From assembly GCA_022711115.1 (NCBI GenBank), contig JAKLFP010000005.1, positions 8,572 to 72,571 of the forward strand: 64,000 nucleotides of DNA. Direction: 5' to 3'. Positions 6,772 through 31,687 of this stretch are shown piece by piece. The notes under the pieces were generated by a model that did no database searches, had not been told where the DNA came from, and saw only the letters and a program-made list of their open reading frames with translations. Numbering within the stretch: position 1 is the stretch's first letter; each line of letters begins with the position of its first letter. The DNA is from Candidatus Omnitrophota bacterium (GTDB taxonomy: Bacteria > Omnitrophota > Omnitrophia > Omnitrophales > Aquincolibacteriaceae). Both the position numbers and the translations under genes were made by a program.

Positions 6772-6842
6772 AAATGAGAAATATGGCAAAAAACAACCGG
6801 GCTGGAAAGCCTTGAACCCTTTTATTTTTTTGCTGGAGCATT

Positions 6843-9679: not shown

Positions 9680-9715
9680 ATTTTTTTGAATGTCATTTAA
9701 AAAGGAGAAAATGTC

Positions 9716-10468: not shown

Positions 10469-10593
10469 AGGCTGCGGAAATTTGGTGTTTCCTGAGGAAA
10501 TCTGACAAGGTCGGACAATGCGATTGAGTACGTCAATTATTTTTGCTACACTGACCCACTCATTTTTTAAAAATAAGCACTAAAGGATTTAAA

Positions 10594-12321
10594 ATGGAAC
10601 GTATACTTCTGATCAATCCATCAGGTTGGCAGAAGGAGAGCATTAATTTAGGACTCTCCTATTTAGCTTCTTCTTTAATGGCCCATGGGTTTGATGTGCT
10701 CATTCTTGATTTGAATCGTTATGAAATGAGCGATGCCGCATTCTTGGAAAATGTCCGTCAGTTTAGTCCTCGTTTGGTTGGAATATCCATAAAAACTGCA
10801 ACAGCACGAGAAGGGGGGCGACTATCGCGACTCCTGAAGGAAGCGATGCCTGAAGTGATTACCGTTGCTGGCGGACCCCACATGTCTCTCTGCCCAGAAT
10901 CTTATATGCGAGATTATCCTTCCATTTCTTTCGGTGTTATGGGGGAGGGTGAGGAAGCTATGGTCCATTTAGCCAAAGCAATATGCAATGGCGGAAAAGT
11001 GGAAAAACTCAACGGGATCGTATGGAGACAGAACGGTCAAATTCTCCTCAATAAATGGATGCCGCCGGAGAACCTCGATGCTCTGATGTTTCCCAACCTT
11101 GATGTGATTCAGGGGTTTAGTTGGAAAAATTTTCGCTACCCAATACTTTCCAGTCGAGGTTGTCCTTTTGGTTGTATTTATTGCTGTGTGAATAAGCTGA
11201 CTGGTTCCAGAAAGTGGCGTTACCGTACTCCGGAAAATGTGGTGGATGAACTGGAATCGCTTGTGCGAACGAAAGGCATCACTTCTTTTGAAATTTGGGA
11301 TGATAACTTTACATTGGACTTGTCGCGTGCGAAAAAAATTTGCCAATTACTTATCGATCGCAAGCTTAATTTATCCTGGTACTGCCATAATGGAATCCGG
11401 GCCGACCGCATTGATGAAGAGCTGGCTCAAATGATGAAAGCGGCGGGTTGCACAAGCCTGGCTTTTGGCGTTGAGAGCGGAAGTCCTGTCACCTTTGCCG
11501 CCATTAAAAAGGGAGAACCCCTTTCCGCAGTCATTAACGCTGTGAAATTAGTCAAAAAGGCCGGTATCAAAGCCGTTGGCTATTTCATCATAGGACTTCC
11601 TGGGGACACTTTGGAAAGGTTTGTTGAAACGGTTTATTTCCAACGATCCCTCGAGTTGGATCATTATGTCTACGGCATGCTCATCCCTTATCCCCATACG
11701 GAACTCTGGGAAATAGTACAAACTCATGGAACTATGTTCTGCGAAATTACCGAAACACAACACTTCAGCGATGACATGGTTCCAATCTCGTTTGAGCTGC
11801 CAGATTTTCCGAAAGCCGATATGATTCGAGCGTTCTATATTGCCAAATATTTCGACTTGTTTGATGCAATCCGGCAGGTTGCTGACAGCGTCAACCTAAC
11901 CGTGGTCCATCATGTCTCTCCTCCCATGATAAGTCATCTGCCGGGCATGTTTATTGCCGGAGGCTCGAAAATTTGCCATGTAGTCGTTGGCGGGGATGAG
12001 GCTGTTGTGCGGGCACTGCCTTCTTTCACGCAGGTACCAAACACAACCAAAATATTATTTTCTGATAACATGCCTTCAGACATTCCTTTTGAAAATCAAA
12101 TAGCTGTCGTCGATCAAGGCTCTAATATATTGGAACGCATTTCTCCCGATTCCGGCCTTGTCTTATTCGATGCGAGGCGGCCGCTTCGTCATTTGACTCT
12201 AGTGCGGCTTCCCAAGGCTGGATCTTTGGGTGCGCGCGGAGCACCTGACAGTGATTTGAAAAACGATGAAAAGAAGAATGTGTTTTCCAAAGCACTGGAT
12301 GCTTTGGGTATTCATCCATGA
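10594..12321 (+). CDS. B12-binding-domain radical SAM protein (copy 1) with C-terminal extension
   Basis: N-terminal Rossmann-like cobalamin-binding region (ILLINPSGW ... VAGGPH). The radical SAM cluster motif is CPFGCIYCC, followed by a glycine-rich SAM motif. About 175 aa of unassigned C-terminal tail. Confidence 0.8.
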   Translation: MERILLINPSGWQKESINLGLSYLASSLMAHGFDVLILDLNRYEMSDAAFLENVRQFSPRLVGISIKTATAREGGRLSRLLKEAMPEVITVAGGPHMSLCPESYMRDYPSISFGVMGEGEEAMVHLAKAICNGGKVEKLNGIVWRQNGQILLNKWMPPENLDALMFPNLDVIQGFSWKNFRYPILSSRGCPFGCIYCCVNKLTGSRKWRYRTPENVVDELESLVRTKGITSFEIWDDNFTLDLSRAKKICQLLIDRKLNLSWYCHNGIRADRIDEELAQMMKAAGCTSLAFGVESGSPVTFAAIKKGEPLSAVINAVKLVKKAGIKAVGYFIIGLPGDTLERFVETVYFQRSLELDHYVYGMLIPYPHTELWEIVQTHGTMFCEITETQHFSDDMVPISFELPDFPKADMIRAFYIAKYFDLFDAIRQVADSVNLTVVHHVSPPMISHLPGMFIAGGSKICHVVVGGDEAVVRALPSFTQVPNTTKILFSDNMPSDIPFENQIAVVDQGSNILERISPDSGLVLFDARRPLRHLTLVRLPKAGSLGARGAPDSDLKNDEKKNVFSKALDALGIHP

Positions 12322-12567
12322 GCATGGATCACAAGATGCCATCCGGACATAGCTGTGACCAGCCACCATGCGGTTTACGCCTTATGATGAAAAATGCTAG
12401 ATCTTTTTTTCTTTCAAAAATTTCATTAAAGACTTCGCTTCAAAGTCTTAAAAAAAATATTGCCGGTATGGGTAAAATCCTGCAAACACTGAAGCCGGAC
12501 CGGAAATTTTTATGGGTAAAAATACAACTCTTGATGAAACGAAAATCGAAACAAAACTTTCCATACG

Positions 12568-13800
12568 ATGAAAATTCTTCATATTTGTGATTGGTATACC
12601 CCTATTGGGGGAGCCGAGAAACTTCTTTTCGGGACACTTGATAGGCTGGAGCAAAAAGGCCACACAAATATCGTGGTTTTCAACGAACATCCCCATCAGG
12701 GCCTGACGGGGAAGCGTGCTGAGTATGCCTGCAAGTTTCTGGAGCTTTTTGTGTATTTTCATCCTGACGCACCCTCTTTCGCAATGCAGTCTATTCCGCG
12801 ACTCAAGGAGATTATTGACCGGCATGCCCCTGATGTCTGTCATATCCACAATTTTCAAAATCCCTATGCGACAGAATTTTTGCTTGAAGAAATTCCCTGC
12901 GTTCGTTCTATTCACGATCCTCGCCTCTATTGTTTTACGAACTGGCGGTTACTGCCGGATCGCAGTATTTGCCCTTACCCTCTTGGTGTTGAATGTCTTC
13001 GACAAGGTTGTTTGTCTTCCGGGCTAAAGCCGAAGACCGATTTTGATAGGAACGCTTTTTGGGTATTGAGGCATCACAACCTGCATAAAAAGATGCCGGC
13101 GCTTATCCTGGAAAGCCGGATGCAAATGGACTGTATGATCCAGAACGGATTTTCACCGAAACAGCTTTTCTGGCTGCCTAATTCGACGTCGATTCAGCCC
13201 ATAACCGAGGTGCGGGAGTTTGTGGAAAAACACCATGACCCGAATGAACGCATCGTTCTGTTTGTCGGGCGGGCTTCGTATGAAAAGGGGATTCATGTGC
13301 TGGTGGAATCTTGTCGGTATCTTCGCAGTGACTGCAAGATTGTAATTATCACAGCGGGTCCTTTGCTTGAAGAGATCCAGCAGCAAGCTGCTGAATTTGG
13401 CGATCGCATTGAGGTGATTCCCGGGCTGTCTTATGAAGAAACCCGGGTCTACTATGCTCGAGCCTCCGTGGTGGCGGTCCCATCGGTTTGGCTTGAAAAT
13501 TTCTGTCTGGTCGGTCTGGAGGCCTTTGCCAATATGAGGCCCGTGATTGGTTCTCGTATCGGGGGTATCCGCGACTGGATGAAAGAGGAAGAGACAGGAT
13601 GGTTTTTTGAGCCGGGGAATTCAAAAGATCTGGCGGCTAGAATCGATAACGCATTCGAGAACAAAGAACGTCTTCAAGCCATGGGTGAGAGTGCGTATCG
13701 GCGAGTACAAACATATTATAACCAGGATCTCTATACCTTTCGTTTGTTAGAAATTTATTCAAAAGGAATCGAATATTTTAATGCTGAGAGGTGTCTGTGA
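12568..13800 (+). CDS. glycosyltransferase family 1 (GT4-like), copy 1
   Basis: N-terminal MKILHICDWYTPIGGAE and a C-terminal GT-B nucleotide-sugar-binding region (EAFANMRPVIGSRIGGIRDW). It is a paralog of the protein at 28071-29342. Confidence 0.75.
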   Translation: MKILHICDWYTPIGGAEKLLFGTLDRLEQKGHTNIVVFNEHPHQGLTGKRAEYACKFLELFVYFHPDAPSFAMQSIPRLKEIIDRHAPDVCHIHNFQNPYATEFLLEEIPCVRSIHDPRLYCFTNWRLLPDRSICPYPLGVECLRQGCLSSGLKPKTDFDRNAFWVLRHHNLHKKMPALILESRMQMDCMIQNGFSPKQLFWLPNSTSIQPITEVREFVEKHHDPNERIVLFVGRASYEKGIHVLVESCRYLRSDCKIVIITAGPLLEEIQQQAAEFGDRIEVIPGLSYEETRVYYARASVVAVPSVWLENFCLVGLEAFANMRPVIGSRIGGIRDWMKEEETGWFFEPGNSKDLAARIDNAFENKERLQAMGESAYRRVQTYYNQDLYTFRLLEIYSKGIEYFNAERCL

Positions 13801-14846
13801 AGGTCGCTTTGGTAAAGACACACAACCAGGTGCGTCTGGATGAGATCAAGACACCTGTGCCGAGTCCGGGTGAGGTTCTGCTTCAAATCGATGCTTGTGG
13901 TGTCTGCGGTAGCGACTATCTTGAGGCGACGGCTTGGGCGCACTCGTGGAAGCGTTTTGGTCATGAAATAGCCGCCACAGTATTTGCTACAGGAAACGGG
14001 GTAGAAGGATTCGCGGTGGGAGATCAAGTGGTTGTGGCGCTCTCTGTTGCTTGTGGGACATGCAAAAGCTGCCTAGCGGGTCATCCAAGACATTGTTCTC
14101 GTCTTATTATTGCAGAGCAAGGCGGTTTTGGAGATTATTTGTTGGTCAAAGATACCCGCCTTTTATTCAAAGTGGAGCCTCGCCTTCCGGTTGAATTAGC
14201 GGTCTTCACAGAGCCTGTTACCGTTGTGTTGGATGCTTTCCATCTTGTTGAATTAAAACCGGAAGATAAATTAGTAGTGATTGGCGGTGGTTTTATCGCC
14301 TGTATCGCTCTTTTGATCGCCAAGATTCTTGGGGTGATCCATCCCTTGGTATTAAGCCGCAAATCTCATCCGCTGCTGGATGCCTGTCTGGCATCGACAG
14401 GAGGGGATTATGTTTCATGGCTTGCAGTGGGAGAACATACGGTGGCAGCGCCAGAGACTTTTGCACAAAAACTCGCAGAACATACAGGACGTGTTGTGGC
14501 CATCCATACAGCTCCCGCCAAGTTCATGCCTCTTTATATTGAAAAATTGCCCTATGATTCTTGTGTCGTGAATTTGGGTTTGTCTGCAAGCGACAAAGAT
14601 AATGAGATGCCATTGGATGCATCGCGGCTTATTTTTAAAAGAATGCAAATTATGAGTGCTTTTCCGGTTCCCTGTCTTTACCTTGCGGAGGCGGTTCATC
14701 TTCTCCAGAAAAATCAGGATTTATTTTCTCTCCTGACCCCTGAAAGTCTTCCTCTCGAGCGGTTACCGGAAGTGATTGCAGCACCCCGGAAATTAAAACG
14801 TAAAATCATGATCGTTTCCCAACCGTCCGGAGGATTACGATCATGA
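13791..14846 (+). CDS. zinc-dependent medium-chain dehydrogenase/reductase (sorbitol/threonine dehydrogenase-like)
   Basis: CGVCGSD and GHE catalytic-zinc motifs, a structural-zinc Cys cluster (CGTCKSC...C) and a GGGFIA Rossmann motif. The start is 13791 (GTG) or 13797 (GTGA overlap with the upstream stop). Confidence 0.75.
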   Translation: MSVKVALVKTHNQVRLDEIKTPVPSPGEVLLQIDACGVCGSDYLEATAWAHSWKRFGHEIAATVFATGNGVEGFAVGDQVVVALSVACGTCKSCLAGHPRHCSRLIIAEQGGFGDYLLVKDTRLLFKVEPRLPVELAVFTEPVTVVLDAFHLVELKPEDKLVVIGGGFIACIALLIAKILGVIHPLVLSRKSHPLLDACLASTGGDYVSWLAVGEHTVAAPETFAQKLAEHTGRVVAIHTAPAKFMPLYIEKLPYDSCVVNLGLSASDKDNEMPLDASRLIFKRMQIMSAFPVPCLYLAEAVHLLQKNQDLFSLLTPESLPLERLPEVIAAPRKLKRKIMIVSQPSGGLRS

Positions 14847-17023
14847 GCTCAAAAGGTTCGCATACCAGGCCTATTTTTATCACCGCAAGGTTTCGAAGCG
14901 GTTCCACCCTTCTCTGGAATCTTTTTCGCAACCTACCGGGTTGCCTTGCTTTTTATGAACCCTGCAATGACCTTCTCACCACTCATATCGAGATAGATAC
15001 CAAACCCCCTCCGTCACATCAGGGAGTGACTTCCTATTGGGACGAGTATCGACCTATATTGGAAGAGTTGCGTTTGCGGTATCGTCAGGAATTCGGTCTG
15101 AACCATTTGTATTTAGAAAACCAGGATACGTATCCTGATTTTGAGAATTATATCCGTTTTTTGCTGAAAGCAGCTTCGGGAAAAGTCCCGGTGCTCCAGT
15201 TTAACCGAATAGATTTTCGTCTGCCATGGCTGCGCGAACGCTTTCCGAATGCATTTATTTTACACCTTACCAGAAATTCCAGAGATATGTGGTTTTCCAT
15301 GATACGAGGTCTCTCGGGTGAATCCTGGCGGGATCCTTTGGAAAACACGAACTATGATCTTTTGCTGTGGTCTGTAGCTCTTTCCAGTGAGTTTCCGTTT
15401 CTGTTTAGTCCTGAAGTTAAAACGACCTATCATCGTCATTATCTTCTCTGGCGGCTCAGTGGGCTCATGGGGACACAGCAAGCTGACATGACGCTGGATT
15501 TTGATCGTGATCTGCTTGGAACCCGGGAGAAGACACTTCAATTAATCACAGATCTTGTGGGAGCTGACAACGCGGAGATCGAACGTCTTGCGAAGCTGGT
15601 GGTCATGCCCGAAACTGGCGGTTGGAGAAAGTTGATCGATGGGCGCTGGTTTACTAAGGCCGAAATGGAATGTGATGCGCTTCTCGAAGAGTTAGGGCTT
15701 TTGGAGGATTTTGGGAAAAAACCGCTTGCAAGCATAAGAAAAAAACATCTTTCAGCATGGAATCATGCGACAGCTGCGGCAACGGAAAGGGTGGCTAAAG
15801 CGTCCGCAAAACTGTTCGGAATGCTGCGACGGGACCGGCTAGTTTTAGGTAAGGATCATGAACAATATGTGATCAATAGTGGAAATGTTATTCGCCATGA
15901 TAAAAAGTTGCTCGAGGATGCCGCTCACCGTTTAAACTCCGTGCAACAAAACTTTCAGGAAGCAGAGGAGTCGTTGCGTCTCAAACAGCAAGCATTTGAA
16001 GAAAGCCAAAAGGTTTTAGCAAACACCCAGACTGCACTTGAAAATAAGAGGCAGGAACTGGTTACGATCAATCAGCGTTATTCGGAGGTGCAGGAACAAT
16101 TACGCGCCAAGCAGCAAGCATTTGAAGAAAGCCAAAAAGTTTTAGCAAGCACCCAGACTGCACTTGAGAATAAGCGGCAGGAGCTGGTTTCGATAAACCA
16201 GCGTTATTCGGAGAAGCAGGAACAATTACGCGTCAATCAGCAAGCATTGGAAGAAAGCCAAAAGGTTTTAGCAAGCACCCAGACTGCGCTTAACAGTAAG
16301 AACCAGGAGTTGGTTGCGATAAATCAGCGTTATTCAGAGACGCAGGAACAATTACGTGTCAATCAGCAAGCATTCGAAGAAAATCAAAAAGTTTTGACGG
16401 GTACGCAGACTGAGCTCAACAGTAAGAGTCAGGAGCTAGCGGCGCTAAGCCAGTGTTTTTCAGAGACGAAGGATCTGTTGCGTGTCAAGCAGCAGGAATT
16501 CGAGGAAAGCCAAAAAGTTTTAGCAAACACCCAGACTGCGCTTGAAATTGAGAGGCAGGAGCTGGTTGCGATAAATCAGCGTTATTCGGAGACGCAGGAA
16601 CAATTACGCGTCAAACAGCAAGCATTTGAAGAAAGCCAAAAAGTTTTAGCAAGTACCCAGACTGCACTTGAAAATAAGAGCCAGGAGTTGGTTGCGATCA
16701 ATCAGCGTTATTCGGAGACGCAGGAACAATTACGTGTCAATCAGCAAGAATTCGAGGAAAGCCAAGAGGCTCTTTCGGATGCGCAAAATGGACTCAATGA
16801 AAAAGAGCGGGAACTCATTTTGATGAAGGAGACTCTTGGAGAAATGCGCCTGGAATTACACAAAGAAAGATCGGAGCTGGAAAATGCGCAAGAAATACTT
16901 ACTAATACAAGAATTATTTTAGCCCAAAATGAACAGATTTTGCGTGAAACCGCGCTTAGGGTTCAGCCGAAGCAATTTTTTCAAAAAAATTTCATAATTA
17001 AAAAAATAAAAAAATTTTTTTAA
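14843..17023 (+). CDS. sulfotransferase-domain protein with long C-terminal coiled-coil repeat region and basic amphipathic C-terminus
   Basis: The N-terminus has the PAPS 5'-phosphosulfate-binding motif (PIFITARFRSGSTLLWNLF) and the 3'-phosphate-binding motif (LHLTRNSRDMWFS). Residues about 378-671 are 7 tandem 42-aa heptad-like repeats (LRxKQQAFEESQKVLAxTQTALENKxQELVxINQRYSExQEQ). The C-terminal tail is KQFFQKNFIIKKIKKFF. ATGA overlap with the upstream gene. Confidence 0.75.
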   Translation: MSSKGSHTRPIFITARFRSGSTLLWNLFRNLPGCLAFYEPCNDLLTTHIEIDTKPPPSHQGVTSYWDEYRPILEELRLRYRQEFGLNHLYLENQDTYPDFENYIRFLLKAASGKVPVLQFNRIDFRLPWLRERFPNAFILHLTRNSRDMWFSMIRGLSGESWRDPLENTNYDLLLWSVALSSEFPFLFSPEVKTTYHRHYLLWRLSGLMGTQQADMTLDFDRDLLGTREKTLQLITDLVGADNAEIERLAKLVVMPETGGWRKLIDGRWFTKAEMECDALLEELGLLEDFGKKPLASIRKKHLSAWNHATAAATERVAKASAKLFGMLRRDRLVLGKDHEQYVINSGNVIRHDKKLLEDAAHRLNSVQQNFQEAEESLRLKQQAFEESQKVLANTQTALENKRQELVTINQRYSEVQEQLRAKQQAFEESQKVLASTQTALENKRQELVSINQRYSEKQEQLRVNQQALEESQKVLASTQTALNSKNQELVAINQRYSETQEQLRVNQQAFEENQKVLTGTQTELNSKSQELAALSQCFSETKDLLRVKQQEFEESQKVLANTQTALEIERQELVAINQRYSETQEQLRVKQQAFEESQKVLASTQTALENKSQELVAINQRYSETQEQLRVNQQEFEESQEALSDAQNGLNEKERELILMKETLGEMRLELHKERSELENAQEILTNTRIILAQNEQILRETALRVQPKQFFQKNFIIKKIKKFF
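15974..16855 (+). repeat. 7 x 126-bp in-frame tandem repeat inside the sulfotransferase gene
   Basis: Repeat units start at 15974, 16100, 16226, 16352, 16478, 16604 and 16730. Long stretches are identical between units (for example caagcatttgaagaaagccaaaa(g/a)gttttagcaa). Confidence 0.85.
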
Positions 17024-17056
17024 ATAACCGGCAATTCATTCCAAGAAAGGAAGAGT

Positions 17057-18790
17057 ATGGAAAACAAAAAAACTACACTTATCGAATTGGCTCTTTCACG
17101 ATTTAATTTCGCATTTAAAAAACCGAACAATTTTTTTGCAATGTTGCTTAGATACTTTTTAAAAGCAAAGAATAGAAATGATGCGATACCGACATTTATT
17201 AATTTAATTCATTCCCAGCATCCTTATGGGATGACAGTCAATGGTGTTGGTGGTCTGCAAGAAGGTGATAAGGGTTTGTATCGCTGGTTTTCAGGAAGTG
17301 AGACAATACTCCGATTCAAGTTGCCTCAGGAAAAAAATATGCAACTCTGTCTGGATTTTTACAACACCTTTCCTAACCAGAGCATATCGGTCATAATCAA
17401 TGGCCATGTCATGGAATCTTTTAATGATATTCATCCCGGGGCCAGAATAAAAAAACGGTACTCTTTTGAGGGGCATGCCAGTAACGAAATCGTACTGCAA
17501 TATAAAAAAACAAATAAATCACTCAAGCTTTATCCTGACGACGCAAGAGATTTAGCGGCAATCTTTTTTGAATTCAAAGTTCTTTTTAGCGATGTAAATG
17601 CGAACCGCCATTTGCAACGATTCGATCTTTCGTCGATTACATATCTTGGATCACCCCTTAAAAACGCTAGGCTGAATCGAGAAGAATATGAGAAGGGGCG
17701 AACGATTCTGAGAAGTCTTCCTTCTGTGGTAACATTAGCCTTGACGACATATTGCAACAATAAGATCCCGTGCCTCATTTGTGACAGGGTTACCCGTAAT
17801 AGGGTCACTGATTGCGACATCAGTGAAGAAATAATTAACAGTGCCAGTCCATTGCTTAAAACCGCGATGTATGTATTATTACATTCTGGTGGGGAGGCGA
17901 TGCTCTCACGACATTATGATAAACTAATAAAAGAAATTAATCCTCCCACACGAGTTTCTTTTGCTACAAACGCCATGCTCATGACGCCTAAACGGGCGGA
18001 TCTGATGCTTGAGAGGGATATTATGGCCGGTATCGTCATATCGTTAGATGCGGCTACGCCGGAGATGTACCGGCTCATGAGGCCAGGTTCGAACTTTGAA
18101 ACCGTGATTAAAAATGTCGCTTATTATATTGACAAGGCTAAAAGTTTAAATCGACATCACTCTAATGTTGATCTTAATATGACGCTTTGCAACTCCAATA
18201 TCATGGATGTCCCTAAACTGGTTGATCTTGCAAAGAAAATTGGTGCCCGCAGCATAAGTTATACTCATCTTAATATCGGGCTTCACCACAAAGTTCAGAC
18301 AGTCGAGGGTTGGGAGTGGGATTATGTCGAACAGATGAATTTTAAAAACAAGGAGCTGCATGACGATTTACTTTTTGAAGCCTATACTACAGCGAAAAAA
18401 AATGGGATAGTCATTTCTCTGCCATCGAATCGTCCCTACATCGGAAAAAACGCAGAAAAATATAATCAGTCAATGCTCAAAACTCCTTGTGAAATTCCTT
18501 TTCAAGAGAGTCAAGGGGTAAAGCATTGGGATTCGCGGTATCATCATAAGATCGCACCCCATATTCCGCTATGTTTTAAGCCTTGGCAGGAAATAGCTAT
18601 TCTCCCGGACGGGGCAACAAGAATTTGTTGCTTCCATGGTAGGGAATTCTACATTGGATATCTTCGGATGAACAATTTTATGAACATTTGGAATTCCGAT
18701 GTAATGGTAGCAACTCGGGAGCAATTTCTGGCTCATGGTGTGGCTCGTGTATGTGTAGAGTCGCAGCCTTGTCCTCACCGCCCGAAGTAA
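17057..18790 (+). CDS. radical SAM-like protein with non-canonical Cx5Cx2C cluster motif and Cys-rich (SPASM/twitch-like) C-terminus
   Basis: TYCNNKIPCLIC followed about 40 aa later by the glycine-rich SAM motif LLHSGGEAML. The C-terminus has CCFHG...CVESQPCPH. About 220 aa of N-terminal domain could not be assigned. Confidence 0.5.
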   Translation: MENKKTTLIELALSRFNFAFKKPNNFFAMLLRYFLKAKNRNDAIPTFINLIHSQHPYGMTVNGVGGLQEGDKGLYRWFSGSETILRFKLPQEKNMQLCLDFYNTFPNQSISVIINGHVMESFNDIHPGARIKKRYSFEGHASNEIVLQYKKTNKSLKLYPDDARDLAAIFFEFKVLFSDVNANRHLQRFDLSSITYLGSPLKNARLNREEYEKGRTILRSLPSVVTLALTTYCNNKIPCLICDRVTRNRVTDCDISEEIINSASPLLKTAMYVLLHSGGEAMLSRHYDKLIKEINPPTRVSFATNAMLMTPKRADLMLERDIMAGIVISLDAATPEMYRLMRPGSNFETVIKNVAYYIDKAKSLNRHHSNVDLNMTLCNSNIMDVPKLVDLAKKIGARSISYTHLNIGLHHKVQTVEGWEWDYVEQMNFKNKELHDDLLFEAYTTAKKNGIVISLPSNRPYIGKNAEKYNQSMLKTPCEIPFQESQGVKHWDSRYHHKIAPHIPLCFKPWQEIAILPDGATRICCFHGREFYIGYLRMNNFMNIWNSDVMVATREQFLAHGVARVCVESQPCPHRPK

Positions 18791-18852
18791 AAAAATAACA
18801 TGATATTTATTTATCAACCCCTGAATTTTGTTTTTAAAATAAAAATTTAATA

Positions 18853-19638
18853 ATGATTAAATTAATACGCCATAATCGTCACCTGATTGCATCGATGGTT
18901 GCGCGCAATCTAAAGGCCCGATTTGCCGGGACTGCCATGGGAATACTCTGGTCATTTTTTTTACCACTCGTCCAGGTTTGTATCTATACCTTTGTATTCT
19001 CTGTCATCATGCATGCCAAAGCCCTTGGAGAATACCAGCATGTGCCGTTTCCGATATGGCTCTGCGCAGGGTTACTTCCTTGGAACATGTTTAGCGAGGG
19101 TTTGGGGATGGCTGTAGGTTCCATTACCGGGAATTCTCACATTGTCAAAAAGACGATGTTTGATAAAAGGATATTACCGCTTTGTTCGGTTATTACCAGT
19201 CTTGTCAACCACGGTATCGCTCTTTCAGTCCTGCTGGTTTTTATGTTGTTTTTCGGAATCCGTCCGGGATGGACCCTTTTGTGTTTGCCCCTAGTGAGCG
19301 TGATCGTGTTCTTATGGACGCTAGCTTGGGCCTATATCGTTGCCGCTTTGAATGTTTTTTTGCGTGATATCAGTCAAATGGTGGGAGTTATTTTAAACTT
19401 TTGTTTTTTTGCAACGCCTATTGTTTATTCTAAGGATCTTGTGCCGCCGGTTTTTGGAATGATTGTCAAAGCAAACCCGTTTTTTTATCTTTTACAAGCG
19501 TACCGAGAGATTATTTTGCTGAACAAGCTGCCCAATATTTTTGAATTATGCGTCGTCACAGCAGGGATCACGCTTTTTCTGTCTGCTGCGGTTTATTTAT
19601 TTAAGATTTTATCGTACGATTTTGCCGACTCTCTTTAG
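18853..19638 (+). CDS. wzm: ABC-2 type polysaccharide export permease (Wzm/TagG family)
   Basis: 261 aa with 6 TM segments. The N-terminus NRHLIASMVARNLKARFAGTAMGILWSFFLPL is characteristic of Wzm/KpsM-type permeases. Confidence 0.8.
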   Translation: MIKLIRHNRHLIASMVARNLKARFAGTAMGILWSFFLPLVQVCIYTFVFSVIMHAKALGEYQHVPFPIWLCAGLLPWNMFSEGLGMAVGSITGNSHIVKKTMFDKRILPLCSVITSLVNHGIALSVLLVFMLFFGIRPGWTLLCLPLVSVIVFLWTLAWAYIVAALNVFLRDISQMVGVILNFCFFATPIVYSKDLVPPVFGMIVKANPFFYLLQAYREIILLNKLPNIFELCVVTAGITLFLSAAVYLFKILSYDFADSL

Positions 19639-19655
19639 ACACGAGAAAGATCGAA

Positions 19656-20978
19656 ATGGAAAATAAAGTACTGATCACGGTGGATGAGATATCGAAAAAA
19701 TACAAATTGTATAATAAGCCGTTTGACCGGTTGAAGGAATTGGCGGATCCCTTCCGGAGGCAATATCATCGTGATTTTTGGGCCCTTCGCGATATTTCTT
19801 TTGAAGTCCGCAGGGGAGAAAGCGTGGGTATTATTGGCGTGAATGGCAGCGGTAAATCCACCCTGCTTCAAATCATCTGCGGGATATTGAAACCCACGAA
19901 AGGTCAGGTGGAGGTCAACGGACGGATTTCAGCGCTCCTGGAGCTTGGGTCGGGATTCAATCCTGAATTGCCCGGCCGTGACAATGTCTATCTGCAAGGG
20001 GCTATGCTGGGATATTCGCCTCAAGAAATGAAAAGAAAATTTAACAAGATAGTAGAATTTGCGGATATCGGTGATTTTTTGGACCAGCCGGTTAAAACAT
20101 ACTCGTCCGGTATGATGATCCGTTTGGCATTCGCAGTGGCGATTCAGATTGATCCCGAAATTTTGATCGTCGACGAAGCCCTTTCCGTGGGAGATGTTTT
20201 TTTTCAGTCGAAATGTTTTCGAAGAATCGAAGAGCTATGCAACAAAGGTGTCACGATCTTATTTGTCTCGCATCAGCTAAGTACGATCCAATCCGTGTGC
20301 CAAAAGGCTATTCTGCTCGACAAGGGAAGGATTGTCTGCCAGGGAGATTCCAGAACCACAGTGGAGGCTTACATCCGTCATATTGCCACGTTGCATGGAG
20401 CCAGGGATATGGCAACGATCCAAGAAGATATACGGATTGAAAAAGAAGTCAAGGAAACGGTCGCCGCGGAAGATCATTCGAAAGACAACCTGGGCGATGA
20501 ACGTTTTTCAGCAACGAATCGTTATGGGACCGGCAAAGCGAGGCTTCTAAAATATGTCGTCAATGATTTGAATAATTGCAAGCAGATAGTGGTTCAATCC
20601 GCGGCTTCTTTAAAGATCCGGTTGACCTATAAAACACATGCGAGGATAGAAAAACCTTTTGTGGCTATTCGTATCAATACTGTTACAGGTGTTCAGATCT
20701 ATGGCAATAATACGACCTTTGCTAACGTTTCTTTGGAGTCTTGTTCAAAAGGAGATGAGATTGAAGTGGAGTTTGAGCAGTATTTGTACCTGAATCAAGG
20801 AAGCTATTTGCTGACATTCGCTTTTGCCGAATGGGGTGAACATGGGAAAGTAATCCATATCGATCGGTTTGTTGATGCGGTTCACATTAATGTAGCCGGC
20901 GGTCCTTATCCCTACGCCGGAATATGTAATTTTCAAGGGAAAGTAACCGTGCTTAATCATACGAAACAGGAGGCATGA
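19656..20978 (+). CDS. wzt: polysaccharide ABC exporter ATP-binding protein with C-terminal glycan-binding domain (Wzt/TagH family)
   Basis: Walker A GVNGSGKSTL, ABC signature YSSGMMIRLAFA and Walker B ILIVDEALSVGD, plus a C-terminal domain of about 190 aa as found in Wzt. Confidence 0.85.
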   Translation: MENKVLITVDEISKKYKLYNKPFDRLKELADPFRRQYHRDFWALRDISFEVRRGESVGIIGVNGSGKSTLLQIICGILKPTKGQVEVNGRISALLELGSGFNPELPGRDNVYLQGAMLGYSPQEMKRKFNKIVEFADIGDFLDQPVKTYSSGMMIRLAFAVAIQIDPEILIVDEALSVGDVFFQSKCFRRIEELCNKGVTILFVSHQLSTIQSVCQKAILLDKGRIVCQGDSRTTVEAYIRHIATLHGARDMATIQEDIRIEKEVKETVAAEDHSKDNLGDERFSATNRYGTGKARLLKYVVNDLNNCKQIVVQSAASLKIRLTYKTHARIEKPFVAIRINTVTGVQIYGNNTTFANVSLESCSKGDEIEVEFEQYLYLNQGSYLLTFAFAEWGEHGKVIHIDRFVDAVHINVAGGPYPYAGICNFQGKVTVLNHTKQEA

Positions 20979-21703: not shown

Positions 21704-21820
21704 GGCATGTCAGTAAGACCAGAAAACGATTCATGGGCCTAGGCCACCAGCAAATTTCATGTGGCAACATGGAAATCTTAATTAACAGGGATCATATAAA
21801 AATCGTCTGGAAAGCAGCTG

Positions 21821-22618: not shown

Positions 22619-22734
22619 GAGTTTTGAGGCCGAAATTTCGGGGGTTTTCTGAGTGAAAATTATCATAAAGTATGTTGACGAAATTTTAAAAAGAAAACTA
22701 TCTGTTTGAGCTTAACGAAGCGGGGAACCATCCA

Positions 22735-26220: not shown

Positions 26221-28074
26221 ATGAAAATCCTTTTGATCAACCCGCCGGGGTGGCAGGACGGAAGTGTCAGTCTTGGGCTGGCGTATCTTTCAGGCGCTTT
26301 GCTTCAAGGAGGTCACGAGGTCAAAATTCTTGATTTCACCGGGAAAAACACAACGCCGGAAGCCATTGCCGAGATGGCAAGAGAGTGGGAGCCTGAGTTC
26401 ATTGGCTTACATATAAAGACAGCACAGGCTAATACCGCATCTAAAATTTCCAAGGCTATAAAGAAAATTTTTCCTCATGCGCTTCATGTGGCAGGGGGGC
26501 CGCATGTGACGCTTTGTTATGAAAAATACCTGAAGGAGAATCCGGAGTTTGAATATGGATTCTCGGGAGAGGCCGATCGCAGTTTTCCCGAGTTTTGCGA
26601 AAGGATTCAGAAAAAGGAATCTGTTGAAAGCCTGGGAGGACTGATCTTCCGGCGAAACGGAAAAATCATTCTAAACACACCGGAACCGATTCTTGATCTT
26701 GATCATTTGCCGCAGCCCTGTTTTGATGTTATGGAAGGTTTCCATTGGGCTGGATTTCGTTACCCTCTTTTAACAAGCCGCGGATGTTCCTATCAGTGTA
26801 ATTTTTGTTCCGTTCCTCGTTTATCAGGAAAAAAATTTCGTTATCGATCACCGCAAAATTGCATCGAAGAATTAGCTCGCGTTAAAGCTGACAAAGGGAT
26901 CCAATCGTTCGAAATTCTCGATGACAATTTTACGTTTTTGATGGATCGCGCAAAAGATTTCTGTCGCAAGTTGATCAAGGCCGATCTCCATCTCTCATGG
27001 TATTGCCATAACGGTATCCGTGCCGACAGGTTTGACGATGAACTTGCCGGACTCATGAAAGAAGCGGGGTGCACGAGCGTTGCTTTTGGTATTGAATCGG
27101 GTGATGAGGCCGTGTTCCGCAGGATCAATAAAGGCGAAAAACTGGAGCAGATTGTACAGGCGATTGCCACGGCCCGAAAGGCAGGGCTTCAGACGGTCGG
27201 ATATTTTATTATCGGGCTTCCGGGGGATAGTTTGCAGGCGGTGAAGAGAACGATCGCTTTCCAGAAAACTCTCAAGCTGGACCATTATATCTATGGCATT
27301 TTTATACCTTACCCCGGGACCAAGGGAGAAGAGGATGTCTTAAGGGAAGGCAGAATCCTTCGGGATATTAGGGAAACAAGCCATTTTTCTGACCGGCCAC
27401 AAGTTCCCATCGAATACCCTTATTTTACAAAAGAAGAGATAGAAGAGGCTTACTATTTGGCATCTGCGGGGGAGTTGCTTGATCTTATCGAAACATGGAA
27501 GATCAACGGTTCCTTGAAAAATGTTATTTTTGTTGAAATGAATCCGCCGACCTATGCCTTTCGCAGGTTTTCTCGATGGGTGGAGGGAGGGATGGATCTT
27601 TTGATCAATGCGATTTTTGACGGCTGTTTTGAGCTTGATAAAAAAGAAGGATCGGTGCGGCAGGTCTATTCCTACCAACATTATTTGTATCGCTGGCGGA
27701 TGATTCGAGAACTCGTCAGTCATTTTTGGCTTCTTCGGAAAAAAAGATACCAATTGGCTTTTTTCCCGTTCAAAAGAAGAAAATCCGTCCTTTTATTTTT
27801 TTGGGCGATTGTGGGTGCGAAACATACTGTGCTTTATGATTTTGAGGGGAGCCGTTTTGTGGAAATCTCTCTGCGAAGCCCCCATTTCCGGTCTTTTTTG
27901 AAAAGATACATAAAAAAGCAAATCCCAAACATTCCCTGGATATTGCTCGACGGCATCAGCGGTATCTTTGAAGGCGTCCTTCAAAGGATCATTCATGCCG
28001 GTATTTGTTGTTATCTCTATTTCCGAAAGCCTTTTTCATCGGAAGCTCTTCAAAAGGAAAACGGAGAAAAATGA
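26221..28074 (+). CDS. B12-binding-domain radical SAM protein (copy 2) with divergent C-terminal extension
   Basis: Paralog of 10594-12321 with the same order of B12-binding, radical SAM (CSYQCNFC) and SAM motifs. About 200 aa of extra hydrophobic/basic C-terminal tail. Confidence 0.8.
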   Translation: MKILLINPPGWQDGSVSLGLAYLSGALLQGGHEVKILDFTGKNTTPEAIAEMAREWEPEFIGLHIKTAQANTASKISKAIKKIFPHALHVAGGPHVTLCYEKYLKENPEFEYGFSGEADRSFPEFCERIQKKESVESLGGLIFRRNGKIILNTPEPILDLDHLPQPCFDVMEGFHWAGFRYPLLTSRGCSYQCNFCSVPRLSGKKFRYRSPQNCIEELARVKADKGIQSFEILDDNFTFLMDRAKDFCRKLIKADLHLSWYCHNGIRADRFDDELAGLMKEAGCTSVAFGIESGDEAVFRRINKGEKLEQIVQAIATARKAGLQTVGYFIIGLPGDSLQAVKRTIAFQKTLKLDHYIYGIFIPYPGTKGEEDVLREGRILRDIRETSHFSDRPQVPIEYPYFTKEEIEEAYYLASAGELLDLIETWKINGSLKNVIFVEMNPPTYAFRRFSRWVEGGMDLLINAIFDGCFELDKKEGSVRQVYSYQHYLYRWRMIRELVSHFWLLRKKRYQLAFFPFKRRKSVLLFFWAIVGAKHTVLYDFEGSRFVEISLRSPHFRSFLKRYIKKQIPNIPWILLDGISGIFEGVLQRIIHAGICCYLYFRKPFSSEALQKENGEK

Positions 28075-29342
28075 AAATACTCCATGTCTGTGATTGGTAT
28101 CGGCCGTTTGGAGGTGCGGAAAGGCTTCTCTTGGGGACATTGGAACTTTTGGAGGCGGCAGGGCATCAAAATATCATAATCACTTCGGATCACCCCTCGC
28201 AGATGAGGACGGGTAAGCGTTTGGAATATTTCCTTCCCAATCTCGAAATCAATTTCGCGTTATTGCCCCGGTGGAGAATTTTTGCACGAAATATGAAACA
28301 GCTTCAAAAAAACATCGGAGCTATTATCCGGGAACACAGGCCGGATGTGATTCATATCCACAATCTGCAAAATCCTTATGTGATTCAAATCTTAACTCCA
28401 TTGGCTCCTACGGTGCGATCTGTTCATGATCCAAGGCTTTATTGTTTTACGAACTGGAGATTGCTTCCCAATAACGAAATTTGTCCTCATCCTCTGGGAA
28501 AGGCTTGCCTAAAAGAAAAATGCTTGTCGTGGAACTTTTTGAGGCTTTCGAACACTGAAAAATGGGCGCCGTTCAAGTTAATGCATTTGCGCGAAAACAA
28601 AAAAATCGATATGCTGATAGCGGAATCTCATGCCGTGGAAGCCTGTTTAAGGCAAAATGGATTCTCCGATCTCCAGATTGCTCTGCTTCCTAATTACACG
28701 GAGAAAAAAGGGGAATGGCGGCAGGTCGAAGCATTTAACCGGCGTTATCACGTTCCAGGACAACGCGTGGTTGTTTTTGTGGGCAGGGCTTCTTACGAAA
28801 AAGGAATAGAGCATTTGGTGGAAGCCATGGCGCTGATCCCTAGGCCGTGGAAGCTGGTCCTTGTGACGGGCGGGGAATATCTCGGCCGGGTGCGTGAAAA
28901 GATCGAGGCTTTGAATCTTGGCGATGCCGTAGAGATCCCCGGAGTTCATGATTATGAAACAACACGCACCTATTATGCCCGCTCCGATGTGGTGGTTGTT
29001 CCTTCTGTTTGGATGGAATCTTTTTGTCTGGTGGGGCTTGAGGCGATGGCAAACGGGAAACCCGTTGTTGCTTTTCGGGCAGGCGGTATTCCGGATTGGC
29101 TTCTAGACAATGAAACAGGCCTTTTGGCGCCTGTCAGGGATGTCAAAGCGCTCGCGGGGAAAATACAAACATTGCTTGATAATGAAAAACTTGCCCGTGA
29201 AATGGGCAGAAAAGGATATGAAAGAGCCGCAAAAGTTTTTTCGAAAGAACGATATCTTTCGGCTCTGGAAGGAATTTTTCAAAAAGCAATCCAGCTGAAA
29301 AACAAAAGCCATAAAGCAAACGTTACACAAAACCAAGCCTAA
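28071..29342 (+). CDS. glycosyltransferase family 1 (GT4-like), copy 2
   Basis: MKILHVCDWYRPFGGAE N-terminus and GT-B C-terminal motif EAMANGKPVVAFRAGGIPDW. ATGA overlap with the upstream radical SAM gene; the ORF-track start at 28005 was rejected as an upstream read-through. Confidence 0.75.
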   Translation: MKILHVCDWYRPFGGAERLLLGTLELLEAAGHQNIIITSDHPSQMRTGKRLEYFLPNLEINFALLPRWRIFARNMKQLQKNIGAIIREHRPDVIHIHNLQNPYVIQILTPLAPTVRSVHDPRLYCFTNWRLLPNNEICPHPLGKACLKEKCLSWNFLRLSNTEKWAPFKLMHLRENKKIDMLIAESHAVEACLRQNGFSDLQIALLPNYTEKKGEWRQVEAFNRRYHVPGQRVVVFVGRASYEKGIEHLVEAMALIPRPWKLVLVTGGEYLGRVREKIEALNLGDAVEIPGVHDYETTRTYYARSDVVVVPSVWMESFCLVGLEAMANGKPVVAFRAGGIPDWLLDNETGLLAPVRDVKALAGKIQTLLDNEKLAREMGRKGYERAAKVFSKERYLSALEGIFQKAIQLKNKSHKANVTQNQA

Positions 29343-29484: not shown

Positions 29485-30702
29485 ATGAAAATTGCTTTTT
29501 TCCACAATCTTCCGTCCGGCGGCGGTCTCAAAACGCTTTGTCAGAAAGCAAATTGTCTCAGGCAAAAAGGGCATGAGATTGTCGTTTATAGTTTTAGTTC
29601 CGCGGAGAAGGACTTCCCTCGCTTATGGGATCATGTCACGGATCATCAAGTCGTGATTCCGTTGGAGTTTAGGGGGGGCGGAAAATACCGTGCGTATCAG
29701 AAGGCTTCGGAAGAACTGGCGGGACGGATCAATCAGTCGGATGTGGATATGGTGCTTGTTGACAAGTGCCGGTTTTTGGGTTCGCCGACGATGATGCGGT
29801 ATTTGAAGAAACCGTTTATTTTTTACACGCAGGAGCCCTTACGGTACAAAGAACATGAACGTTTAGCGCCCCCTGATTTTTTAGCAAAGAATTTTATCCA
29901 TAAAAAAAAGCCAATACAGGCGGGCGGCAGAGGGTTCCGTTTGGGGCAGATCTTTGATCACTTGATGATCCGAAAAATCGATCGGCAAAATTTACGCAAA
30001 GCTGAAAATATTTGGACCAATTCCTGTTTTAGCCAGGCGTGGCTTCAGCGTGTCTATAATGTTCGTGCGGAAGTGGTTTATCAGGGGATCGATGTGGAAT
30101 GCTTCAAACCCGAACCCGGTCTTAAAAAAACAAACCGGGTTCTTTCAGTGGGACGGATTAGCCGGATCAAAGGCTATGATCTGCTTTTAGAAGCCATCAC
30201 AAAAATTCCTGTTGCCGTGAGACCGGGATGGGACATCGTTTGTGATGATGAAACTTCATCCTATTCGATGGGACTCCAGAAACAGGCTGAGGAAAACGGG
30301 GTTGACTTGCGTGTCTTCAGACGGATTCATGAAAAAGAGCTTTGCCGTTTATATCAGGAAAGCAAGGTTGTTCTTTGTGCTTCCCACCGGGAACCCTTTG
30401 GATTGGTCCCGCTGGAAGCGATGGCTTGCGGAACGCCGGTGATTGCAGTGGATGAGGGGGGGTATCGGGAAACGGTTGTTCATGGAAAAACAGGCCTTTT
30501 ATTGCCGCGGGATCCGGCGCTCTGGGTCCAACACATTCAAGAAATCTTTAAAGAACCTGAGATGAGGGAAAATTTTGGAACCGCGGGACGACAACGAGTA
30601 GAACGGCAGTGGACTTGGAAAAATTTTATAGATGCGATAGAATCCTGGGCACAAAGCCATTTAGAAAGAGGCGACAAAATTCATGGACCGCGTCCCACAT
30701 AA
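29485..30702 (+). CDS. glycosyltransferase family 1 (GT4)
   Basis: The EPFGLVPLEAMACGTPVIAVDEGGYRETV motif is the canonical GT4 E-x7-E nucleotide-sugar-binding block. Confidence 0.8.
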   Translation: MKIAFFHNLPSGGGLKTLCQKANCLRQKGHEIVVYSFSSAEKDFPRLWDHVTDHQVVIPLEFRGGGKYRAYQKASEELAGRINQSDVDMVLVDKCRFLGSPTMMRYLKKPFIFYTQEPLRYKEHERLAPPDFLAKNFIHKKKPIQAGGRGFRLGQIFDHLMIRKIDRQNLRKAENIWTNSCFSQAWLQRVYNVRAEVVYQGIDVECFKPEPGLKKTNRVLSVGRISRIKGYDLLLEAITKIPVAVRPGWDIVCDDETSSYSMGLQKQAEENGVDLRVFRRIHEKELCRLYQESKVVLCASHREPFGLVPLEAMACGTPVIAVDEGGYRETVVHGKTGLLLPRDPALWVQHIQEIFKEPEMRENFGTAGRQRVERQWTWKNFIDAIESWAQSHLERGDKIHGPRPT

Positions 30703-31687
30703 AACAGTCAAGTTGACCATTATCATTGTGAATTGCGATACTCCGGAATTGACGATGGACTGCATCTACTCTATTTATCAATTCAAGCCGTCATGCCCCT
30801 TTGAAGTCATCCTTGTCAACAATGGTACGAACGGAATCGAGGCAGAGCATCTGAAAGAATTTCCCGGGATTAAAATGATCAAGACCGGCAGCAACCTGGG
30901 ATTCAGCAGGGCCAATAATCTCGGGATTTATAATTCCTTGGGTGATTTTATCGTTCTCCTCAATAGCGATACCAAGTTGATCGATCGGAGTTTTGACGCC
31001 ATGCTGGACTATATGGAAGAAGCCAAAAACCGGCATGTCGGAGCACTGGGCCCCAGAGAAGTGGACGGTGAACAACGGTTTCGCCTTTCCTGTGGTTCTT
31101 TCCCGACTTTTTTTTCCGAATTGACCAGAAAAGTTTGGCACTACCGTCTTTCGATCAATGATTATAATTTGCGCGATTATCTTGATTCAAAGCACGCGAT
31201 CATGAAAGACGTGGACTGGGTATCCGGCTCCTGCCTGATGCTGCGCCGGTTGGCGCTTCATGAGGCCGGTTTGCTGGATGAAAGCTTTTTCTTGTATTTT
31301 GAGGACATTGATCTTTGCAGCCGTTTGTGGAAAAAAAAGTGGGAAGTTCACTATTTCCCGGAAACCAGCGTGATTCACTATGGGGGCGGCTCTGCCCGGA
31401 AAAACTTGATGCTGGCCATGACGGAATACCGCCGCAGTGAGATTTATTTTGTCAGGAAATATTATGGTTGGCTTGGGGAAATGGGGATTCGCTTTTTTCT
31501 GTTTTTAAAATACGGCTACTATTTTGCGAAACAGTATCCTGTTTTTCTGATCCGGAAATTCCTCAAAAAAAGGTTCCGGGAGGCTTACGTGGCCGCGCTG
31601 CTTTCAAAAAAAGTCGTCGAAATCACATGGGATGCTGTCAATGCCAATCCCATCGAGCCTCCTTTAAAGATGAAAGGCAAAAGCTGA
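30683..31687 (+). CDS. glycosyltransferase family 2
   Basis: LTIIIVNCDTPELT (GT-A N-terminus), the VLLNSDT DxD-like block and a GT2-typical length. 20-nt overlap with the upstream GT1. Confidence 0.75.
   Translation: MDRVPHKTVKLTIIIVNCDTPELTMDCIYSIYQFKPSCPFEVILVNNGTNGIEAEHLKEFPGIKMIKTGSNLGFSRANNLGIYNSLGDFIVLLNSDTKLIDRSFDAMLDYMEEAKNRHVGALGPREVDGEQRFRLSCGSFPTFFSELTRKVWHYRLSINDYNLRDYLDSKHAIMKDVDWVSGSCLMLRRLALHEAGLLDESFFLYFEDIDLCSRLWKKKWEVHYFPETSVIHYGGGSARKNLMLAMTEYRRSEIYFVRKYYGWLGEMGIRFFLFLKYGYYFAKQYPVFLIRKFLKKRFREAYVAALLSKKVVEITWDAVNANPIEPPLKMKGKS

Follow-up and report, generated by a model that had tools for sequence, protein, structure and literature searches.

Tailoring by radical S-adenosylmethionine (SAM) enzymes has been studied in depth for antibiotics, cofactors, lipids and peptides and is, to our knowledge, little described for surface polysaccharides that bacteria export. 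C-methylation is the commonest reaction of the class B enzymes, and GenK, GenD1/GntE, Fms7 and MoeK5 act on sugars that are already attached to an aglycone or a lipid. All four are listed among the B12-dependent radical SAM Csp3-methyltransferases (PMC12931638). In apramycin biosynthesis, the 1,2-diol dehydratase AprD4 and the NADPH-dependent reductase AprD3 form an established pair that acts after glycosylation, on paromamine (PMC5461906). AprD4 has a related N-terminal architecture yet binds no cobalamin (PMC12931638). HpnI, HpnK and HpnJ of the hopanoid cyclitol ether pathway, in which HpnJ is proposed to convert bacteriohopanetetrol (BHT)-glucosamine to the cyclitol ether, and the calditol synthase Cds act on a lipid-linked sugar after its glycosylation (PMC13459092). 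Here, we analysed a stretch of 64,000 nucleotides from a Candidatus Omnitrophota bacterium (contig JAKLFP010000005.1; the window in what follows) that carries two copies of a two-gene cassette, in which a radical SAM enzyme with a B12-binding domain (rSAM1 or rSAM2) is paired with a glycosyltransferase (GT-1 or GT-2). The rSAM1 sequence is on record from a Candidatus Omnitrophota genome. We consider it probable that the two cassettes are anciently diverged subtypes (type 1 and type 2) of one conserved 'install-and-tailor' module, located in an ABC-transporter-dependent (Wzm/Wzt) locus for a sulfated glycan. Both superfamilies are well known, but the pair is undescribed and no curated family is specific to either protein; no account of it turned up in the available literature that links B12 or radical SAM enzymes to glycosyltransferases, O-antigens, polysaccharides or sulfotransferases.

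With GenK, GenD1, Fms7 and MoeK5 the window enzymes share an N-terminal cobalamin-type Rossmann domain, a CxxxCxxC radical SAM barrel and a setting in sugar-biosynthesis loci. The similarity is at superfamily level only, however, and the window enzymes have extra conserved tails, a pairing or fusion with a glycosyltransferase of CAZy family GT4 type and a dehydrogenase partner. The context of the four known enzymes is that of antibiotics, whereas that of the window pair is a polysaccharide probably exported by Wzm/Wzt.

The original prediction, made from the letters of the window, had placed radical SAM and glycosyltransferase open reading frames (ORFs) in both copies. These were recovered at the same positions together with all of the motifs that it quoted. 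The cluster motif reads CPFGCIYCC in rSAM1 and CSYQCNFCS in rSAM2. Both radical SAM proteins scored above the Pfam cut-offs, with 79 bits (rSAM1) and 67 bits (rSAM2) for PF02310 (B12-binding; cut-off 32) and 85 and 96 bits, respectively, for PF04055 (Radical_SAM; cut-off 29.5). The cluster cysteines, C190, C194 and C197 in rSAM1 and C189, C193 and C196 in rSAM2, were invariant across 112 aligned sequences. A structural model was calculated for rSAM1 using AlphaFold2 and 112 homologs (pLDDT 93, pTM 0.89). It contains a beta-alpha-beta N-terminal domain, and a Foldseek comparison with solved structures placed TsrM, AprD4, MgmA/QCMT, TokK, CysS and OxsB on top (E 1e-26 to 1e-19). The likeness to TsrM, TokK, CysS, OxsB and MgmA/QCMT lies in the overall two-domain fold; identity is 17-22%, and these enzymes act on tryptophan, carbapenems, a nucleotide or a protein and have no glycosyltransferase partner. 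When solved structures were matched by sequence, TokK, OxsB, CysS and QCMT reached into the N-terminal domain, whereas AprD4, the best match to the radical SAM core (E 2.5e-23), covered the core only. Together these results point to a class B-type fold and domain architecture for both proteins, on the evidence of the model for rSAM1 and of the Pfam matches for rSAM2. The cobalamin-binding-type fold on which the original prediction depended was accordingly borne out by PF02310 in both copies and, for rSAM1, by the model's matches to TsrM, MgmA, TokK, CysS and OxsB.

Three further cysteines of rSAM1 (C250, C264 and C286), apart from the cluster ligands, were invariant in the 112 homologs, and the motif WYCHNGIRADR was nearly so. 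An auxiliary iron-sulfur cluster formed by these residues was considered and appears unlikely, since the secondary-structure positions in the model put them at opposite strand ends and on a helix at the outside. A role as hydrogen-atom donor, or some other role, may be theirs. At least 599 proteins of the B12-type radical SAM kind, ~470 amino acids long, 28-38% identical and with a CHNGIRAD motif, are present in representative genomes (L008-L087 among them). Among the matches listed, they often form arrays (2-7 copies), with Chloroflexota, Bathyarchaeia and Nanoarchaeota among the carriers, and lack the four-cysteine glycosyltransferase described below. The scan of representative-genome contigs with the rSAM alignment listed distant B12-type radical SAM proteins only and is not informative on the cassette.

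The partner glycosyltransferases matched PF00534 (Glycos_transf_1; cut-off 26) with 114 bits (GT-1) and 134 bits (GT-2). An AlphaFold2 model of GT-1 (pLDDT 94.7) matched sucrose-phosphate synthase (SPS), GlgM, MshA, PglA, BshA and PimA in Foldseek, with TM-scores of 0.69-0.76 to SPS, MshA, PglA, BshA and PimA, and the EX7E motif (E310-x7-E318) was invariant in 116 sequences. The window proteins resemble these five GT4 enzymes in their GT-B fold, in the EX7E motif and in the C-terminal domain, which binds the donor. They differ in the N-terminal (acceptor) domain, which carries an insertion consisting of H116-D-P-R and then C122-x12-C135-x7-C143-x4-C148, again invariant in 116 sequences. By sequence, solved structures matched the donor-binding C-terminal half only, and none of them matched the HDPR and four-cysteine (Cys4) insertion. 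We assign both proteins, from model and motif, to the retaining GT-B enzymes of CAZy GT4 type. With a GT-B fold, an invariant EX7E motif and retaining GT4 enzymes as the nearest solved relatives, the glycosyltransferase looks catalytically competent. The 'GT1' of the original prediction goes back to the Pfam name Glycos_transf_1 and had to be replaced: no membership of CAZy GT1 was found, the relatives of recognisable family among the matches listed being GT4-type or related retaining GT-B enzymes (e.g. glycogen/starch synthases). The TIGR04157 model (glyco_rSAM_CFB) gave 38 and 42 bits against a cut-off of 400. The Cys4 glycosyltransferase clade is small: an exhaustive search of 1.84 billion representatives with the acceptor domain gave 61 proteins at E<=1e-10, of which only 7 reached E<=1e-30. 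In addition, tblastn of GT-1 against plasmids returned only Sinorhizobium GT4 enzymes at 26% identity.

We next turn to the relation between the two copies. By BLAST, rSAM1 and rSAM2 were identical at 203 of 445 positions (46%, E 2e-142), co-linear over residues 3-444, and GT-1 and GT-2 at 189 of 412 positions (46%, E 2e-116) over their full length, so that the predicted co-linear similarity and the relatedness of the glycosyltransferases both held. An all-against-all BLAST of the window ORFs gave no third copy. Beyond residue 444 the radical SAM tails had no BLAST similarity, and when the tail families were compared profile against profile the probability was 0.4%. The tails were thus unrelated, as had been stated; their lengths had been put at about 175 and 200 amino acids and came to ~130 (copy 1) and ~175 (copy 2). 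In the model, the rSAM1 tail contains an additional alpha/beta domain at approximately residues 436-540, while the different tail of rSAM2 has moderately hydrophobic segments by hydropathy.

If the second cassette had arisen by a recent duplication of both genes within this genome, followed by divergence, then the two copies should be each other's closest paralogs, which was the test attached to the original prediction. Their location 15 kb from each other, in a single cluster and with the same orientation, the equal similarity of both genes (46% and 46%) and a per-gene G+C content that does not differ between the cassettes would all agree with such an origin. Identities over full alignments of 25 rSAM/GT pairs gave a different picture. 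Copy 1 was nearest to L089/L090 for both genes (58% for the rSAM and 67% for the GT of L089) and copy 2 was nearest to L105/L106, again for both genes (67% and 65% for L105), whereas the window copies were 39% (rSAM) and 45% (GT) identical to each other. Each tail type was moreover kept within its own subfamily across many contigs: rSAM1 has many orthologs, 55-68% identical, that cover 93% of its length including the tail, and a second ortholog set of ~620 amino acids has the tail of rSAM2 (P0115, 58% identical over residues 1-568). Also, the seven-gene block that begins with copy 1 recurs in a Desulfovibrionales-type locus (L133). Given these distances, a recent duplication is highly improbable, and the cassettes are best described as two old, diverged subtypes. 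Of the 'duplicated cassette' as predicted, two homologous copies remain and duplication in place does not. A third, more distant subtype (type 3) has the order GT-rSAM and was found in L117, L119, L120, L122, L124 and L127. Two cassettes occur also on the metagenomic contigs L119 and L122 (in L122 at 5827-9034 and 10125-13140), so the presence of two versions in one locus is not unique to the window.

The rSAM and GT distance matrices of the 25 pairs correlated with r = 0.91, and 0 of 5000 permutations reached as high a value. This fits co-divergence of the two proteins and agrees with the co-evolution that had been predicted, but neighbouring genes that are simply inherited together also give correlated distances without any functional interaction, and a mirror-tree comparison is weak when taken alone. 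Because co-inheritance could by itself produce the correlation, we placed more weight on gene adjacency and gene fusions.

A metagenome scan on the glycosyltransferase side, seeded with two GT motifs only, yielded 44 loci. In these, a radical SAM enzyme of the family lay adjacent and on the same strand in 22/22 GT copies that had at least 1.5 kb of sequence on both sides (16 upstream, 5 downstream and 1 fused). L102 encodes a single protein of 1182 amino acids with the radical SAM part at residues 133-584 and the glycosyltransferase at 771-1180. Two further fusions, both among the matches to the GT acceptor domain, were P0241 (1157 amino acids; B12, radical SAM and GT4 domains) and the more distant P0290 (1325 amino acids) with the same domain order. 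Searches from the radical SAM side led to a gammaproteobacterial contig (L004) with rSAM, GT and dehydrogenase next to Wzm/Wzt and a sulfotransferase, and to a deltaproteobacterial contig (L006) with the rSAM-GT pair within a Wzm/Wzt locus. Among the best 120 rSAM matches, 50 shared their longest-contig size with one of the best 120 GT matches, and Wzm/Wzt glycan loci around the pair recurred in Omnitrophota, Desulfobacterota and Gammaproteobacteria. By these gene neighbourhoods the pair is a conserved unit, present in several phyla and sometimes fused, as the original prediction had proposed. Two ORFs of ~1240 amino acids (L062 and L069), with a distant radical SAM domain and a weakly GT-like C-terminus, were too distant and were not counted as evidence.

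Other members of the Cys4 glycosyltransferase clade were fused to a SPASM radical SAM domain (P0287) or to a class I methyltransferase (P0260), and P0248 and P0268 are head-to-tail double glycosyltransferases of the same clade. The domain compositions indicate that the clade has repeatedly been linked with tailoring enzymes, those of the radical SAM type foremost, and the fusions to SPASM and methyltransferase domains fit a glycosyltransferase whose product is tailored at once.

An alternative is that the glycan is not the target: the radical SAM enzyme might work on a lipid carrier, a peptide or a cofactor, for instance, and be merely co-inherited with the glycosyltransferase. In favour of this, an ortholog in Salidesulfovibrio onnuriiensis (L003) has no glycosyltransferase within 8 kb on either side, which shows that the radical SAM gene can occur without one next to it, and class B substrates are very diverse (PMC12931638). 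Three independent single-chain rSAM-GT fusions, the adjacency in all 22 cases and a context that is consistently that of a glycan locus nevertheless make a non-glycan target very unlikely.

The gene junctions also differed between the copies. In copy 2, the rSAM2 stop and the GT-2 ATG overlap as ATGA (28071-28074), and GT-2 appears to be translationally coupled to rSAM2 through this overlap; its longest ORF opens further upstream, at a TTG (28005). Stop and start codons of the pair overlap in most orthologs as well. That the glycosyltransferase directly follows the radical SAM gene, as predicted for both copies, was correct for copy 2 only. In copy 1 the two genes are separated by 246 nt, and this gap is occupied by an ORF of 90 amino acids whose ATG overlaps the rSAM1 stop (ATGA) and which extends 23 nt into the 5' end of GT-1. 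The 90-residue product has no Pfam match. It aligns with residues 620-701, the last 82, of the full-length ortholog P0003 (41% identity, E 2e-14), and its identical sequence is present in two other assemblies. Because of this homology to the P0003 C-terminus, and because the same split is found in a 68%-identical relative (P0002/L132), we regard rSAM1 as a fission product. A programmed frameshift at the rSAM1 stop was considered and rejected: a slippery heptamer is lacking, the ORF downstream begins with a separate ATG that overlaps the stop, and the split is seen in the 68%-identical relative too.

From gene order, a Zn-dependent dehydrogenase emerges as the third regular partner of the cassette. 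A homolog follows the glycosyltransferase in 14 of the 15 type-1 loci with room for it and lies just upstream of the glycosyltransferase in 7 type-3 loci; the arrangement of copy 1 is found also in L004 and L133. This near-constant partner was absent from the original prediction, and simple methylation does not explain it. In L105, with the gene order RS2-GT2-ADH-GT4c-...-GT2fam, a divergent dehydrogenase (7220-8296) lies between the GT-2 ortholog and the next GT4, at a position where the window has only a 142-nt gap (29343-29484). From this comparison it follows that copy 2 either lost its own dehydrogenase or shares that of copy 1.

A dehydrogenase at this position brings AprD4 and AprD3 to mind, as the logic of a radical enzyme plus a reductase acting on a glycoside is the same. 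The window radical SAM enzymes could then be dehydratases or oxidases, with the dehydrogenase as their reductase, that deoxygenate or epimerise a sugar within the glycan; the cobalamin-type domain would be structural or serve a non-methyl purpose. AprD4 is both the best core match and among the top fold matches, the dehydrogenase is near-constant in type-1 and type-3 loci and present in L105, and the apramycin enzymes are an established precedent after glycosylation. The AprD4 family model, however, gave 96-103 bits against a cut-off of 500 and only in the core region. The N-terminal domain of AprD4 is unmatched here and AprD4 binds no cobalamin, whereas the N-terminal domain of the window proteins matches PF02310 and true cobalamin binders. 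In addition, most type-2 cassettes have no dehydrogenase nearby. A redox route of this kind explains the dehydrogenase and the AprD4 core match and is a poor fit with the strong B12-domain match, and we consider it unlikely.

The reading that we prefer, an install-and-tailor module in two subtypes, is built on the domain identities, the class B fold and the competent-looking GT4, and on a pair of genes that are obligately adjacent, at times fused, co-diverging and set in a Wzm/Wzt context. In such a module, the retaining Cys4-GT4 would attach a sugar, on the cytoplasmic side of the membrane, to a glycan linked to undecaprenyl. The class B enzyme, physically associated with the GT4, would then modify the added sugar at an unactivated carbon. 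In subtype 1, the Zn-dependent dehydrogenase/reductase would subsequently tune the redox state of the same residue. Since the subtypes differ in the rSAM tail and in the GT acceptor domain, two different modified residues would result. We infer that the radical SAM enzyme binds cobalamin and takes as its substrate the product, still lipid-linked, of the glycosyltransferase. As to the chemistry, C-methylation as catalysed by GenK, GenD1 and MoeK5 is the leading single guess; we put it forward tentatively and as one product among several, and it explains neither the strict pairing with a glycosyltransferase nor the dehydrogenase. Radical dehydration or oxidation followed by reduction in the manner of AprD4/AprD3 has the smaller chance given above, ring contraction or rearrangement as by HpnJ, Cds or OxsB is less probable still, and other reactions account for the remainder.

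The ring chemistry would explain the glycosyltransferase pairing. In the HpnI/HpnK/HpnJ and Cds systems, as in the proposed module, a glycosyltransferase acts first and a radical SAM enzyme then remodels the lipid-linked sugar; HpnJ belongs to class B. If the window enzymes worked in this way, there would be no methylation: the radical SAM enzyme would contract or rearrange the ring of the just-attached sugar, the dehydrogenase would reduce the resulting carbonyl, and each subtype would make one such residue, carbocyclic or branched, with a hydrolysis-resistant link. An obligate pairing with a glycosyltransferase, up to fusion, suits an enzyme that acts on a fresh glycoside, and an intermediate aldehyde or ketone could account for the dehydrogenase. 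The HpnJ model was also the top NCBIfam match for rSAM2 and the second for rSAM1. Its scores of 143-161 bits lie far below the cut-off of 578, however, and BchE, PhpK and BzaD scored similarly, so that nothing is specific to HpnJ and no specific sequence signal stands behind this chemistry. The window enzymes are not family members, HpnI is an unrelated glycosyltransferase, and the substrates of the known systems are membrane lipids rather than an exported glycan. We know of no carbasugar in a bacterial O-polysaccharide, which also counts against it. Neither HpnJ nor Cds has a proven mechanism (PMC13459092). Taken together, ring contraction or rearrangement is quite unlikely. Should it nonetheless be true, a bacterial surface polysaccharide would contain a carbocyclic or branched residue or a glycosidase-resistant, ether-type link. 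A corollary would be that the invariant four-cysteine site of the glycosyltransferase is an iron-sulfur or zinc site on which the radical SAM enzyme docks; ring chemistry and docking site together are a similarly doubtful proposition.

Several observations weigh against the install-and-tailor reading. To the ambiguity of correlated distances and to the ortholog of S. onnuriiensis that stands alone must be added that no member of the family has an assigned substrate or product. The proteins were scored against the named class B families of NCBIfam (BchE, HpnJ, PhpK, BzaD, ladderane rSAM, HpnR, TsrM-type, KedN5 and AprD4) and no curated cut-off was reached, the best scores being 168 bits for rSAM1 (BchE, cut-off 481) and 161 bits for rSAM2 (HpnJ, cut-off 578); the chemistry therefore cannot be carried over by homology. 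A cobalamin-type fold is by itself no proof of bound cobalamin, as AprD4 illustrates. A hydrophobic C-terminal segment found by hydropathy analysis in most orthologs of both radical SAM types is consistent with a membrane location, but this location is deduced from relatives, hydropathy is a crude indicator, and rSAM1 itself does not have the segment of its orthologs. Finally, a dehydrogenase follows the GT-2 ortholog in L105 and is absent beside the other type-2 cassettes and beside copy 2 of the window. Given this absence at most type-2 cassettes, the role of the dehydrogenase may not be tied to the radical SAM step.

Both cassettes lie in a glycan cluster on the plus strand, at approximately 5.3-31.7 kb of the window (Table 1); the genes past 31.7 kb are unrelated to it. 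The cluster opens with an O-antigen-ligase-like (Wzy_C) protein (5353-6771), CysD, CysN/C and a TauE-type exporter, followed by rSAM1, GT-1 and the dehydrogenase. In its middle are the coiled-coil sulfotransferase, a SPASM radical SAM enzyme, Wzm, Wzt with a Wzt_C domain and two further sulfotransferases. A 707-residue membrane protein, a GDSL esterase, rSAM2, GT-2, an ordinary GT4 and a GT2 complete it. No initiating transferase was identified in the 64-kb window.

Table 1. Coordinates of the two cassettes and of neighbouring genes in the window.
Feature	Position	Strand	Description
rSAM1	10594..12321	+	predicted type-1 class B enzyme, B12-binding domain and radical SAM core, 575 aa
90-aa ORF	12318..12590	+	putative detached C-terminal segment of the ancestral type-1 rSAM
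GT-1	12568..13800	+	predicted GT4-type retaining glycosyltransferase, 410 aa
Zn-dependent medium-chain dehydrogenase/reductase	13791..14846	+	351 aa; PF08240 ADH_N 74 bits; overlaps the end of GT-1
Sulfotransferase with long C-terminal coiled coil of 42-aa repeats	14843..17023	+	PF13469
Second radical SAM enzyme, SPASM/twitch type	17057..18790	+	577 aa; PF04055 and PF13186
Wzm (ABC-2 permease) and Wzt (ATPase with Wzt_C carbohydrate-binding domain)	18853..20978	+	PF01061, PF00005, PF14524
rSAM2	26221..28074	+	predicted type-2 class B enzyme, 617 aa
GT-2	28071..29342	+	predicted type-2 Cys4 GT4, 423 aa counted from the ATG at 28071
Ordinary GT4 (without Cys4 insertion) and GT2	29485..31687	+	Pfam matches; both also accompany the copy-2 relative L105

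The genes from rSAM1 to Wzt form a block of seven (rSAM, GT, dehydrogenase, sulfotransferase, SPASM rSAM, Wzm and Wzt) whose order is the same in L089, L093 and L133. The glycosyltransferase of L133 is a protein that NCBI names from Maridesulfovibrio frigidus. Sulfotransferase homologs were present in 8 loci and SPASM radical SAM homologs in 6 loci, plus L133 in each case. In L133, a gene for an STT3/PglB-type oligosaccharyltransferase (1-1923, minus strand) lies ~5 kb upstream of the block, and the glycan might be transferred to protein in that organism.

Since Wzm and a carbohydrate-binding Wzt stand at the end of the type-1 block, the module may, by analogy, build a non-reducing-end cap that is recognised by the transporter. 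WbdD of E. coli O9a is a precedent for a chain-end cap in Wzm/Wzt-type export (PMC3482155). As with WbdD-type terminators, a coiled-coil tailoring enzyme is encoded beside wzm-wzt and Wzt has a carbohydrate-binding C-terminus, a likeness by architecture only; WbdD is a kinase/methyltransferase, whereas the enzyme in the window is a sulfotransferase. The gene for this sulfotransferase contains a 126-bp repeat in 6.2 tandem copies (15981-16765, 83% matches) that encodes the coiled coil of 42-residue repeats, and its homologs elsewhere are much shorter, at ~365-530 amino acids. By resemblance to the coiled-coil 'ruler' of chain terminators such as WbdD, sulfation might both terminate the chain and determine how long it grows.

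Copy 1 is immediately preceded by genes for the synthesis of 3'-phosphoadenosine 5'-phosphosulfate (PAPS), CysD and a fused CysN/CysC, with the TauE-type exporter (6843-10468). Three sulfotransferases are encoded in the cluster (14843-22618), and two of them (20975-21703 and 21821-22618) are tandem paralogs with 47% identity. The cluster product is probably heavily sulfated. The 707-residue protein in mid-cluster (22735-24858, plus strand) has many hydrophobic segments and no Pfam match, and could be an unrecognised membrane glycosyltransferase or polymerase. The G+C content is 42% in mid-cluster (window 16001-28000) and 47-48% in the flanks; a lower G+C content is frequent in surface-polysaccharide loci. 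Outside the cluster, near an HlyD/ABC-2/OEP efflux set, the genes at 45135-46517 (plus strand) and 58494-59849 (minus strand) are paralogs with 44% identity. An LssY_C domain was found in the product of 45135-46517, the only member of that pair scanned against Pfam.

The module, in which a class B radical SAM enzyme and a Cys4-GT4 are usually accompanied by a Zn-dependent dehydrogenase, is compact and recognisable, and it is found in anaerobes of several phyla. The seven-gene block in a locus matching the cultured species M. frigidus makes the action of the B12-type enzyme on the glycan directly testable, and the natural fusion proteins are ready constructs for biochemistry. Functional annotation would follow for homologs of the radical SAM enzyme and the glycosyltransferase that are now annotated generically (514 in the glycosyltransferase search at E <= 0.001). 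The answer would extend the chemistry of O-antigens and capsules by a novel modified sugar or a novel reaction.

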